A stretch of DNA of 64,000 bases from Eledone cirrhosa. Its lineage: Eukaryota. A program made the position numbers and the translations under genes. The DNA is taken from positions 115,010,001 to 115,074,000 of the forward strand of contig OZ024742.1 in NCBI GenBank assembly GCA_964016885.1, read 5' to 3'. The notes beneath the pieces were generated by a model. The model saw nothing but the letters and a program-made list of their open reading frames with translations, was not told the origin of the DNA and made no database searches. Positions within the stretch are counted from its first letter, which is position 1; every line of letters begins with the position of its first letter. Below are positions 563-60,718 of the stretch, piece by piece.

Positions 563-687
563 TGTAGGAGGTCAGTTTTATTGTAGTACAATAAAGCAAT
601 GCAGATATCGGATAAGAAGCACTCTACAGTTTGTAGGACTGGAGTATACATAATATAAGATCAAAAGATGGTTAAAGGAGTTCCATG

Positions 688-758
688 TATTTTATTATGC
701 GAATTTCAAAAACAAACATCATCAAGCAATAATATTTGTGTTTTCATCAGATAAAACA
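688..758 (-). ncRNA. Type I hammerhead ribozyme (pLTR of PLE 563-6950)
   Basis: Minus strand: tgttttat CTGATGA aaacacaaatatt..gatgtttgttttt GAAA ttcgca TA ataaaata. The stem III palindrome carries one mutation. Confidence 0.8.
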
Positions 759-1744
759 GGAGAACATGATATGAAGGCTAAAAAACACTTGTGGATAGTG
801 CAGTTTTAAATCAACATATGAAAAGTGGTTTTAGATTGATGTGTGATATTGGGAAAAATATTTTATTTAGAGAGGGGGGTGGAAGGGATGAAAAAGGGGA
901 AGAGATGAGAGGGAGAGATGGGTGATAGAGAGAAAGAAAAAGATAGTTTTTATAACTGAGAGGAGATATATTGTTTTACATAGAGATGTTGAAAACCGTT
1001 GAAAGATAATGTATAAATTAAAAATTTGAAATTAACGAAGGGAGGATATGTGCGAGGAAAGAATATTTTATTTATGGAGGGGGGTGGGGTGGAAAGGATG
1101 AAAAAGAGGGGGAGGAAATGAGAGTGAAGGTGGAGAGGGAGAGATGGGTGATAGAGAGAAAGAGATAGATTTTATAACTGAGAAAAAGATATATTGTTTT
1201 ACATAAATTAAAGGAATTTGAAAATTAACGGAGGGAATTTATGTATGAAGATAGAGAGAAAAAAATAATTATGGATGAATAATCTAACGTCAAAAAAAGT
1301 GTGTGTTGATAAGTATTGTGGCAATTTCAAAATTAACGAAGAGAAAAATTATTAAGGTTTGTGTGTAGAAGGATTTGAGAAAAATAATGTGAAGTTAAAG
1401 TTTCAATATTGAAGGAATTGATAAAGAGTTAATATGTATTAAGAATGAGTTCGTTGATGGGGAGAAAAAATAATAATAAATTAAGGATGAAATTGAGATT
1501 AAAAAGATTTATGATAGAGAGAAAAAATAATGATGATTGCGGATGAATATTCTAACGTCAAAAAAATAAATGTATATGTTATGAAGGATTTTACAAGGTG
1601 AAGATAGAATGAGGGTAATGAGTAAACAAGTATTATAGAGTGTATAATGCCCTTTAAAGTAAGGTGGGGAGATGGGTATATTTTAAAGAGGTGTATTTAT
1701 ATGTGCTTTTGAGAAAAGATTCTAAATTGATAAAGAATTGAATA

Positions 1745-3493
1745 TTAACTGTATACTTTGTGAAAAGTTCTATGGAATTTATGCAGGCAGATAGAAAATA
1801 AATCTGTACGTCTATTTATTATAGAATCTAGGTTAGAGATAATGGTAAATTTTTCATTTAGGCAGAGACTACAGATTTTAGATAGAGAGCTGTTCAAGTA
1901 TGAGGATGCAGAAGAAACCTTCTTCCAAAAGATGGTATATTTAATGTTTTTGTCTTTTAAGGACCATATGAGTTCTGAGAGAGCAGTGTTGGTTCTTTTA
2001 TGTTTGTATTTGAAAGATGAATGATGATTATAGAGACGAGCTTTAAAAGAGGTGGAAGTGGAGCCAAAATAGGTGAAGGAATTGGTGCTAGTTATAAATT
2101 TACATTCATAAATTAAGTTTTTATCGAGACAATGGTTGTTGAGAGGACATTTATTTTTAATGCGGCAGTTGCAATTAGAGAGATTATTAATGAGTGACCT
2201 AGTGTTATCTATAGAAGGAATTGGATTGGAGAAGTTGTTTGCGATAGGAATAATAGGAATAATAGTTTCTTGATTTAGAGTTGGATTATGAACATTTAGC
2301 GAAGTTGTGTTTGACGTTGTATTTGTGTTTACAGAAGTTAGCCTAGGGTTTACAATGACGTCGGGAGTACTATTACTGTTATTATGAAATTCAATGTTGG
2401 AAGGAAGAGATTTAGTATTTAGTATTTTATTGTTGTGTTTAGAGATGATGTTGGAAATATTGGAGGATGTAGAATAAGAAAATTTGATGGTGTGTTTGGT
2501 AAATATTTTACTATCGATATGTGAGGGAGGGAAGCATTTATTTAAGGCACTAAAAAATAATTTAGGAATATTGTTATTAATAGAGATGGAGAAAGGAGCA
2601 TTATACCAGATTATGTTTTTGTATCTAGGTCTTTTATTAAAATTATTGGAATGATCATGATTAATTATTCTACTGTAAGTTTTTCTAGAATTTGTTTCTT
2701 TACTATATTTGATTTTATCTGGATAGCCGGCTTTAGAAAGTGCGTTATTATAGTAATTGGCGTTAGCATCAAAGATGTTTTTATTAGAGGATATGTTAGA
2801 TATTCTTTTTCCAATATTACTAACTATAGCATTCTTGATATTGGTAGGATGGTTAGATTTAAAGTTAACATAATTTAGGTTCTCATTGTTTTTATGGTAA
2901 GGGTAATATAGGCCAGTGTCAAGATTAAGAGATACATCCAAGAAATTAGATAGTTTGATACTATTATCAAATTCAATTTTTAGGTTATGTTGGTTAAAGA
3001 GATTACGTATATTGTTCTTAATAATATTAAGGTTAACTATATTGCAATTTAGGATAGTAAAGAGTCCATCGTCACGATAAATTCCACCGCGAAGTTGAGG
3101 AATTTTCCGACTCAAAGAGTTCAAAATGAAGATACCAATTAAATCAGTCAATTGGGATGAATCGGATGCTCCCATTGTGATATCGAAGTTGTTAGAGGTA
3201 TCGGCTCTGGTCCAATATTCGTTGTTGAACTCTAGGATGGTTTTACGTGCGGTGGGGATGATGTGAAGTTCATCTGTGGTGATGTCAGAATATTTAAGTG
3301 CGAAAGATAGAGCATTATTGAGAAGTGAAGGCGAAATGGAGGAATAGTAGCTGGCAATATCAAATTGAATAAATTTTAGTTTGTTTTTATTATCCAATTT
3401 GTTGAACCAGCCAATCACCTCAGAAGTACCAAACCATAAATTTAGGTTCAAAGAAGAGCAATTAGAACTAACCTGTGGGATAATTCTATCCAA
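1745..3493 (-). CDS. PLE RT/GIY-YIG endonuclease, 5'-truncated copy with intact C-terminus
   Basis: FIQFDIASYY (RT motif A), ITMGASDS (B'), IYRDDGL (C), NFLDVSL, SNHP, CNCRIKNKCPLNNHC linker, LIYECK..YFGSTSTSFKARLYNH (GIY-YIG), CSLC and CLH. Confidence 0.93.
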   Translation of the reverse strand: MDRIIPQVSSNCSSLNLNLWFGTSEVIGWFNKLDNKNKLKFIQFDIASYYSSISPSLLNNALSFALKYSDITTDELHIIPTARKTILEFNNEYWTRADTSNNFDITMGASDSSQLTDLIGIFILNSLSRKIPQLRGGIYRDDGLFTILNCNIVNLNIIKNNIRNLFNQHNLKIEFDNSIKLSNFLDVSLNLDTGLYYPYHKNNENLNYVNFKSNHPTNIKNAIVSNIGKRISNISSNKNIFDANANYYNNALSKAGYPDKIKYSKETNSRKTYSRIINHDHSNNFNKRPRYKNIIWYNAPFSISINNNIPKLFFSALNKCFPPSHIDSKIFTKHTIKFSYSTSSNISNIISKHNNKILNTKSLPSNIEFHNNSNSTPDVIVNPRLTSVNTNTTSNTTSLNVHNPTLNQETIIPIIPIANNFSNPIPSIDNTRSLINNLSNCNCRIKNKCPLNNHCLDKNLIYECKFITSTNSFTYFGSTSTSFKARLYNHHSSFKYKHKRTNTALSELIWSLKDKNIKYTIFWKKVSSASSYLNSSLSKICSLCLNEKFTIISNLDSIINRRTDLFSICLHKFHRTFHKVYS

Positions 3494-3666
3494 GATGACT
3501 TTGAAATGCGCATAATAAAATACATGGAACTCCTTTAACCATCTGTTGATCTTATATTATGTATACTCCAGTCCTACAAACTGTAGAGTGCTTCTTATCC
3601 GATATCTGCATTGCTTTATTGTACTACAATAAAACTCACCTCCTACATTAACTTGCTCCTTAACGG

Positions 3667-58579: not shown

Positions 58580-58697
58580 TATCTCTGAAGAAGTGACAAC
58601 TGATTATACATTTGCTATCGAATACTTGGTAACATTATATGATTACGCAGGCAGCGATACATAGGTATTCCGTCTGTTACAGAAACATATGTCAATA
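58580..58697 (+). ncRNA. Type I HHR with ~90 nt stem II and palindromic stem III ACATATGT
   Basis: tatct CTGAAGA agtgaca...tgttaca GAAA catatg TC aata. Stem I is weak. Confidence 0.68.
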
Positions 58698-58901
58698 CCT
58701 AATAAACTCCTTTATAAAAGCACTTTCATTTTATATTCACATTTTCTACATTTTCTCCGGAATATAATTTATACTCGTTTAGCAAACCTACACGTACGCT
58801 GTTCATCTCTAACGTGACGATATATTATCACTACATTATTAATAACTTGAAATTTCATATATATATATATATATATATATATACATATATATATATATAT
58901 A

Positions 58902-59057
58902 ACGAAGGAAATGTGGTAAGGAACCAGGTGGACCATAACGCACCAAAGTGGGTAATAGGAACCAGTAAGACCCCGACAGCTGAGCTCAAGCCGTTTCGAC
59001 GAGAATTAGCCGTCGAAACGGCTTGAGCTCAGCTGTCGGGGTCTTACTGGTTCCTAT
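58902..59057. mobile_element. Mini inverted pLTR with the 3' half of an HHR
   Basis: Perfect inverted repeat ataggaaccagtaagaccccgacagctgagctcaagccgtttcgacg around a short spacer. GAAA cggct..agctg TC ggggtc. Confidence 0.75.
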
Positions 59058-60488
59058 ATATATATATATATATATATATATATATATTTATATATATATA
59101 TATATATATATATATATATATATATATATATATATATATATATATATATATATATATATATATATATATATACGTATGCGTGTGTGTATATGTGCGTGTG
59201 TGTCGGGTGTTTGTGTCCGTGTCTGCATGCATTTCATAATTGTCATTTGTTTTTGTCTGAGTCCAAATAGATTAACACATATCCTTTATACACTATGACA
59301 CATTTTCAATCATAACATCGTTTCTGGCATGAGAAAATCATCACCCTCTCTGGGATAAAGGAATCGATTATATTGACACTAGTATGTGGATAGTACTTGT
59401 TTTGAGTTATAATAAACCAATATATCTCTAGATGTAATATATTGTCTTTTTTTTGTAGCTTTTATCCTACACTGCCTCGAAAATATAATATTCCAGATTG
59501 TAAATATAGCTTAAAACTTGTAGAGTCAGTCAATCGATCTATCAACGTTTCTCTGGTTTTTTTTACATTCAACTTACTTCAAAATGAAGTAAATCTAGAC
59601 TACAATGCATAATTTGTTTATGTACATTCAGTAAGTTTTGATTACTACTGCTTCTTCAGCCATGGCATTGTGTTAAGGAAATTCAATATCACTTCAACTA
59701 GGAAAATAAAAGTTACAAAAAAGAAATAGCTAAGATTGATCAAATTGTAAGATGAGTAAAAAAAAATTGTATTTTTAATAACACAAAGGAAAGTAGATCA
59801 GACTTTATTTTTTCCTCGATGTTTCTTTTTCTGTATTTTTTCAGTAAGCCCACTTACACAATCCAAATCAAATGGGAAATAAATTAAAGCAAATAATCTA
59901 TGAATGAAATAGATATGCATACACTTGTGTTTTTTTCTCATTATCTTTTTATCGTCTATTCAACTATATTTGTTTCATATGTTTGGACATTAAGGTGGCT
60001 TCACGTTTAATGTCTGAGAATTTCGATAAGGCATTTTTCGAATAGTATTTACCGGTATATAATTAGAGTTCATGAAGAATTAAACTGTAGGACGGTGATG
60101 AGTATTGGCTAATAAAGGTACACATATAGTATATATATATAGATGATGATAGTACTATGATAGTACTATATGGTCTACACTAAACTAAAGTGCAATTTCT
60201 TCGGTATGTTTCAAGGATGACACGTTCTCACACATCATACATATCAACATTATCACCAAATCATCAAATCTGTTATTCAACCTATCATAGCTAATTTAAA
60301 TTGCATTCGGTTCAAAAGTTCCCGTATTTCAATCGTACAGTGATCAATCAAATGAGATGAAATTAAAACATGCAAAATTCAAATTCTCGTCGCTCACCTT
60401 CTCTAACACATAACAATTCAGAGATAAATAATGCCTCACTCAAAATACGCTAAACAATTCAAAGTTTTATATATATATATATATATAT

Positions 60489-60718
60489 TGAAATAACAGA
60501 TTAAAGTTTAAGCAAAGAATCGCTGCTTTCAACCTTAACGGGATATTCTGAAACTCAGTTTCAGAAGATCCCGTTAAGGGTGAAAACAGCGATTCTTTGC
60601 TTAAAATTTAATCTGTTATTTTAATAAATATTTGCTCTACGATTCTTATATATTTGATATATATTTATCTTTATCGAACCTTCTTTTGATTTTAGTCTTT
60701 AAATTTATTATTATTACT
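60489..60718. mobile_element. Mini-element of two head-to-head CAGAAGA-family HHR motifs
   Basis: Fold-back centre tctgaaact-c-agtttcaga at 60556. Confidence 0.82.

Follow-up and report, generated by a model that had tools for sequence, protein, structure and literature searches.

The question raised by this locus is why two-armed, inverted insertions of Penelope-like elements (PLEs) should carry a tail at one of their 3' ends and lack it at the other. The locus is a window of 64,000 nucleotides from Eledone cirrhosa (contig OZ024742.1, positions 115,010,001 to 115,074,000; G000:C3:115010001-115074000; genome size 3.0 Gb). It has a G+C content of 34% and is rich in (TA)n runs that bound inverted repeats, and its long reading frames encode reverse transcriptase (RT)-endonuclease (EN) proteins. 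An inverted structure with pseudo-long terminal repeats (pLTRs) and an optional tail is known from endonuclease-bearing (EN+) PLEs (PMC8557442; PMC3846280), the one-sidedness of the tail has already been published in qualitative form (PMC8557442, Fig. 2 legend; PMC3846280), and the origin of both the inverted arms and the one-sided tail has been flagged as a question (PMC8557442; PMC11167929). Throughout, U denotes the site where the short arm stops, T the end of the tailed arm, and the tail the sequence from U to T.

An initial annotation of the window had listed 13 insertions with one tailed and one untailed end, and had proposed that such a pairing is nearly always found. All 13 pairs are real, with one arm stopping at U and the other continuing through the tail, and their coordinates are correct to within about 10 nt; the end placed at 12790 is followed by an expanded (TAT)n up to 12817. 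A family-based classifier assigned one T and one U end (T/U) to 15 of 15 in-window pairs, namely these 13 together with 8626/10034 and 10686/10812, and inspection added 7580/8458 and the nested pair 10192/20899. The window thus holds 17 T/U pairs out of 17, 13 listed and four unlisted (Table 1), and no T/T or U/U pair was found in it.

The analysis was extended to about 1.6 Mb of sequence outside the window, in nine blocks on six contigs that include the window flanks. In a family-free scan, segments between neighbouring (TA)n runs were tested for inverted structure, a procedure that detects symmetric and asymmetric cases equally. This returned 126 inverted inter-microsatellite segments. In 114 of them the two arm ends differ in position by 25 nt or more (asymmetric), and the remaining 12 are symmetric; five of these 12 are pairs treated below as exceptions, and seven appear to be simple repeats, an unrelated repeat pair or microsatellites inside larger elements. 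All ends were then mapped onto 30 real-copy family references, which were drawn from asymmetric insertions. Within each of these families the end positions are bimodal with two sharp positions, and over 1.66 Mb in all, 455 of 467 microsatellite-abutting ends fall into the U or T class windows.

Ends were paired when they faced outward, belonged to the same family and lay no more than 10 kb apart with no long (TA)n between them. Removal of segmental duplicates reduced 132 such pairs to 125, and 12 ends of family F1 were moved to class U after an alignment artefact in that family was noticed. The 125 pairs comprise 114 T/U, three U/U and two T/T pairs and six with an off-site end, such that 114 of the 119 two-armed insertions with both ends on a site are T/U, whereas independent ends would give at most 50%. 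The held-out set, from which the 30 reference insertions and the window were subtracted, contains 74 T/U, three U/U, two T/T and six off-site pairs (74/79 T/U; p=4e-17 against 0.5). Label shuffling within the 12 families that have at least three pairs gave 51 T/U pairs on average and never more than 70 in 20,000 shuffles, compared with 92 T/U among the 96 pairs observed. Thirteen full-length loci were recovered by protein search; both ends were resolved in seven, and all seven are T/U. A further 30 loci were ascertained on their tailed end and kept out of the statistics, and here the partner was U in 6 of 6 cases. T falls on the left in 53 insertions and on the right in 54, with no preference for either side. 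With both termini classified and compared with random pairing, T/U pairing therefore lies far above independence, as the initial annotation had anticipated from the window: the two ends are coupled, not independent.

Of the five exceptions, three vanish or prove complex on inspection: one U/U pair has a tail just past an expanded microsatellite, one exception has mirrored flanks (a later host duplication), and one T/T pair has a U stub alongside. In block C4a (109578-110005; G000:C4:200109578) the TA patch at U has grown into a long microsatellite that severed the tail, leaving a T end that mimics U. Across the 30 references the tail measures 38-171 nt; the initial annotation had given ~50-170 nt for the continuation of the long end.

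By their motifs, the elements are assigned to the known Hydra clade of C-terminal EN+ PLEs, for which RWK, DKT, a CxCX5C linker, CxxC and CxH, an open reading frame (ORF) of <3 kb, insertion into (TA)n and hammerheads have been described (PMC8557442). They are inserted into (TA)n and have a single ORF with the RT followed by a C-terminal GIY-YIG-type endonuclease, recognized by pattern reading of a VYxC...YxG motif. Intact relatives elsewhere in the genome have ORFs of 772-794 aa with RWK, DKT, YRDD, the CxCX5C linker, a GIY-YIG-type C-terminus and CxxC/CxH. In the proteins of loci L221, L226, L228 and L232, RWK is present and DKG is changed to DKT, and 4 of 4 carry the CxCX5C linker as well as the CxxC and CxH that flank the conserved E and N of the endonuclease. 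A partial tandem (pLTR) combined with an inverted 5'-truncated copy is found at window 13068-17940 and at loci L222, L224, L226 and L227. Fifty-one homologues were identified at E<=1e-20, and Pfam returned no relevant family for six window frames or three full ORFs. The assignment rests on the coding families that carry the motifs, and non-coding and hairpin-less families were given no clade.

Both U and T are internal, TA-rich sites. The initial annotation had taken the tailed end for the RNA's 3' end, and this part of its reading is not supported, since internal copies read through T into the leader and, if present, the ORF; in the window this occurs at 3646, 9285, 17319 and 20566. In four autonomous families the ATG follows T by 48-52 nt. 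TA microhomology of 1-5 nt is present at T in nine families examined, and at U the microhomology to the TA repeat has a median of 3.5 nt and reaches at least 2 nt in 17 of 21 measurable families, compared with 13% of control positions. The other part of the reading, that both ends of a cut (TA)n target prime cDNA synthesis at two sites, is likely, given that the ends are coupled and that either arm can be the longer.

The untailed end had also been described as joining the microsatellite at a TA-rich spot downstream of a hammerhead ribozyme. U is indeed TA-rich, and a pattern scan recognized putative hammerhead cores in 10 of the 30 short references; each lies upstream of U and ends 40-124 nt from it. 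An Rfam scan of the window gave no hammerhead, only microsatellite-driven miRNA-type matches below gathering scores. The arms often span the predicted hammerhead cleavage site, and the template is thus likely to be uncut or religated; cleavage is unnecessary in vitro (PMC11167929). Stump sizes recur by family (about 190 bp in F0, about 220 in F1, about 450 in F3 and about 420 in F6), and many U arms of these four families end 45-70 nt upstream of U, near the putative hammerhead. Together, these recurring sizes and stops suggest preferred template ends or stall points.

Families whose tails cannot otherwise be aligned have in common a predicted tail hairpin with a lower stem of RCUC/GAGY and a 2-nt 3' bulge (UU, UC, UA or UG), in which the upper stem and loop vary freely with pairing kept. 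By a strict scan, 14 of 29 tails contain this hairpin (hairpin 1), its start lying 1-16 nt past U and in most of them 6-10 nt past it, compared with one in upstream controls, none on reverse complements and 0.08 expected from dinucleotide shuffles, a figure that overstates significance because the motif was defined on the same tails. The out-of-sample evidence is a second hairpin and four autonomous families. A second, short-looped hairpin (hairpin 2) lies 5-14 nt past T in read-through copies of F1, F3, F7, F10 and F31, and is degenerate in FW and F8. Both hairpins are also present in the four autonomous families, which a protein search brought in afterwards; two of these families show a mismatch or bulge. 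Each site in the Hydra-type families is thus followed, about 5-14 nt to its 3' side, by a hairpin of its own.

The two arms of an insertion derive in nearly all cases from the same family (126 of the 134 pairs of adjacent ends that face outward, where chance would give 8%); the eight cross-family pairs do not follow the rule, three of them being T/U. The arms also agree in sub-lineage, arm identity being 0.939 within insertions and 0.896 between them (n=57, p=9e-7). At locus L228 (G000:C3:316596001-316604000), a 7.1-kb insertion contains two complete 772-aa ORFs head to head, one arm ending at T and the other at U; the arms have seven shared variants that are absent from two other copies, and two private variants each. 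Arm lengths could be compared at 38 of 114 junctions, palindromic and long pairs having been dropped as ambiguous. The U arm extends further upstream at 21 of these, the T arm at seven and the two are about equal at ten (21 to 7, p=0.013), and nine T arms consist of tail only and never reach U.

Taken together, these results make it probable that one RNA is primed by both ends of the cut (TA)n target, by one of them at U and by the other at T. In this model each hairpin would bind one RT, either in a dimer or as a single enzyme acting twice, fixing the start a few bases to the 5' side, where each target end would anneal at the TA patch. A used site would be blocked, allowing one use per RNA, so that the second end would have to take the other site, and tail length would equal the distance separating the sites. 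Synthesis from T would proceed through hairpin 1 behind the U-primed enzyme; a stall would give tail-only arms, a halt at the point reached by the U enzyme equal arms, and displacement of the first cDNA longer T arms, before head-to-head joining of the two 5'-truncated cDNAs. As hairpin 2 lies beyond T and is absent from inserted 3' ends, arms longer than one unit (window 13068-17576) and full-length copies would need tandem or circular RNA. A stricter version, which we put forward tentatively and hold to be a serious possibility, makes two-site twin priming obligate: two RT subunits would act on two hairpin copies of one template, every two-armed insertion would consequently be T/U, tail length would follow from hairpin spacing, and full-length copies would derive from tandem or circular RNA.

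Three other routes to the same structure have to be weighed against priming at both sites of one RNA. Single priming followed by fold-back (self-priming), with endonuclease resolution of a hairpin intermediate leaving the tail on one side, has been suggested for PLEs, and palindromes at the inversion junction have been described (PMC8557442; PMC3846280); here, too, many stumps have arms of equal length and form almost perfect palindromes. An arm made by fold-back, however, has the first cDNA as its template and cannot exceed it, yet either arm can be the longer (U in 21 and T in 7 of the 38 junctions), which argues against single-primer fold-back. Length differences in both directions, together with the nine tail-only T arms that do not overlap their partners (e.g. 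window 22523-22655), are beyond what the fold-back of a single cDNA can explain, and microhomology of the priming type is found at both sites. We regard this route as decidedly improbable. It is slightly less probable still that the tailed end is primed at the true 3' end of the RNA, or at read-through (UA)n behind a T-ended source copy, with only U internal. Such a source copy would yield a transcript of T followed by (UA)n, lacking hairpin 2 and homologous to the target, and ends without a partner are somewhat more often T (98 to 75); T is nevertheless internal and followed at a near-fixed distance by a second hairpin that the model does not predict, and in vitro both starts were internal and a longer RNA 3' end left the main product unmoved (PMC11167929).

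A dimeric or paired ribonucleoprotein with two transcripts from the same source, in which an asymmetric complex directs one transcript's start to U and its partner's to T, is the least remote of these routes, though we consider it unlikely. It would account for arms that overlap completely, among them those with the two full-length ORFs of L228, with no need for strand displacement, and arms from one source locus would share variants as observed. An extra asymmetry rule is needed, however, because each RNA offers both sites; cross-family pairs are rare (8/134) and disregard the rule; and the further upstream reach of the U arms is expected if the T enzyme trails on a shared template. Hardly credible is the view that the asymmetry is an artefact of ascertainment, in which unequal arms always look tailed and untailed and symmetric cases are overlooked. 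The family references do stem from asymmetric insertions, and the family test is blind to any family with symmetric insertions only; the ends nonetheless lie at two fixed sites per family, the equally sensitive family-free scan found 114 asymmetric against 12 symmetric segments, and the held-out and permutation tests hold.

Several points weigh against coupled priming at two hairpin-marked sites of one RNA. Sequence cannot tell one RNA from two RNAs of one source locus, and the own partner was strictly the best match of an arm in only 16 of 57 cases, with 20 ties. The sample is non-random, several blocks having been picked near hits to family F1. Two of the exceptions, one U/U and one T/T, look genuine, and 173 ends (98 T, 75 U) have no partner within 10 kb. 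The strict scan for hairpin 2 gave 5 hits among 26 candidate read-through copies (0.31 expected), the other positives being read by eye; this low yield is due to the many candidates that represent decayed ends or elements inserted in TA-rich DNA, and to the rejection of single mismatches by the scan. Binding of the hairpin by the RT is inferred from position and paired changes. Families F2, F6, F13, F14, F19, F20, F26 and F30, with tails of 38-79 nt, have no RCUC/GAGY hairpin, and these and similar families gave 15 T/U pairs, one U/U and one off-site pair. The motif is therefore not required for pairing, and the rule is wider than the hairpin. In vitro, finally, the start site of PAc, a Poseidon PLE of Anolis carolinensis, did not differ from top to bottom strand (PMC11167929), which fits the left/right equality of T (53/54) and yet is no demonstration of coupling.

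The PAc system is a close experimental parallel. Both target strands are cut and extended in vitro, reverse transcription begins at two sites within the RNA, between which the tail lies, RNA to the 3' side of the start sites is required, and a dimer is predicted (PMC11167929). The elements described here resemble PAc in having two internal sites with the tail as the sequence between them. PAc, however, belongs to a different clade, and its starts, reported to lack homology to the target, are both placed within the ORF in a single AC-rich stem-loop (PMC11167929), whereas here both sites precede the ATG, have TA microhomology and are each followed by a hairpin of their own. Coupling of the two starts within one insertion is not treated in the portions of the PAc study available to us (PMC11167929). 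For EN+ PLEs a tail of 30-40 bp has been reported, called optional and attributed tentatively to EN-mediated resolution (PMC8557442; PMC3846280), compared with 38-171 nt here; the accessible parts of these two sources give no count of end pairing and no hairpin pair, and the Hydra clade section of PMC8557442 describes neither an end-pairing rule nor a twin hairpin. The tail is likewise not treated in the available text of the retrozyme preprint (bioRxiv 10.64898/2026.07.22.740005) or of PMC13282606. The elements, the inverted structure, the one-sided tail and the two starts in vitro are thus known, and the strict pairing and the twin hairpins are new as far as the literature searched extends; neither was found there, the figures and consensus files of PMC11167929 and PMC8557442 lying outside the search.

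A near-strict one-of-each rule means that both ends arise from one coupled event, and the 'optional' tail becomes the fixed outcome of two start sites. The twin hairpins are two small, mutable RNA elements for which clear predictions and an existing assay format are at hand. In L1 twin priming both target strands prime on one RNA and an inversion results, with one primer at the poly(A) end, a variable second site and arms that share no element sequence. The elements studied here would share with L1 the priming of both strands on one RNA. They differ in that both sites are fixed and internal, T not being the RNA 3' end, and in that the arms mostly duplicate each other, with tail-only T arms making up just 9 of 38. 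If programmable sites inside the RNA serve to prime both target strands, such a retroelement would solve the priming of the second strand in a different way from long interspersed nuclear elements.

Table 1. Insertions, hairpins and related features in the window (positions are those of the window; T, tailed end; U, untailed end).
Feature	Position	Strand or orientation	Details
Two-armed Hydra-type PLE insertion	564..6950	T 564 (minus arm), U 6950 (plus arm)	tail 89 nt
Partial RT-EN frames of 564-6950 element	1745-3556; 3834-5714	-; +	
Predicted hairpin 1 (after U) of 564-6950 element	3565..3589	+	internal pLTR-ORF junction
Predicted hairpin 2 of 564-6950 element	3655..3672	+	8 nt past internal T (3646), T read through
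Putative hammerhead core upstream of U	6853..6899	+	mirror copy 704-750 minus; pattern scan, no Rfam match
T/U pair, ~320-bp tandem unit folded back	7580..8458	U left, T right	tail about 37 nt
T/U pair	8626..10034		tail 99
Internal T read-through of 8626-10034	9285		predicted hairpin 2 at 9253-9270 (-)
Nested T/U pair	10192..20899	U 10192, T 20899	U = 3' end of long minus arm; T = short inverted arm
Predicted hairpin 1 of 10192-20899 element	20655..20693	-	internal junction
Predicted hairpin 2 of 10192-20899 element	20544..20560	-	5 nt past internal T, about 42 nt before ORF start
T/U pair, family F2	10686..10812		tail 60; no RCUC/GAGY hairpin
T/U pair, family F1	10919..12817	U left, T right	tail 90 + expanded TAT
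T/U stump, family F8	12853..13003		predicted hairpin 1 at 12898-12916 (-)
T/U pair	13068..17940		tail 171; long minus arm exceeds one unit
Internal T of 13068-17940 element	17319		read through into ORF; predicted hairpin 1 at 17444-17477 and 13195-13228
Degenerate hairpin 2 of 13068-17940 element	about 17294-17310		
T/U pair, family F11	20972..22450		tail about 150-160; predicted hairpin 1 at 22306-22374
T/U stump	22523..22655		T arm = part of tail only; arms without overlap
T/U pair, family F1	29879..30490		
T/U pair, family F19	30594..31043		tail 44; no RCUC/GAGY hairpin
T/U stump, family F0	35108..35273		tail 80; predicted hairpin 1 at 35157-35180 (-)
T/U pair, family F20	35298..35602		tail 65
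T/U pair, family F3	36613..39813		tail 90; RT-EN fragment at 38476-39399
T/U stump, family F0	58902..59054		tail 56, shortened by internal deletion
T/U pair, family F1	60489..60717		

A number of additional features of the window were observed. The folded-back unit at 7580-8458 is retrozyme-like and has no ORF. Four stacked PLE insertions of later date (10686-10812, 10919-12817, 12853-13003 and 13068-17940) interrupt the Hydra element at 10192-20899, in a (TA)n inside its 3' region. At 60760-61711, a family F31 unit of about 580 bp is arranged head to tail; it has a U end, reads through T internally and carries both predicted hairpins, and there is no inverted arm. Family F1, with more than 2,000 first-look candidates in the genome, appears to be non-coding and has a 141-bp internal tandem unit (window 56275-56534 and 12138-12799). 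Broken frames at 45716-48141 contain helicase and replication-initiator-like motifs, may be Helitron-like, and are flanked by an 85% direct repeat (41821-43651 and 48085-49956).

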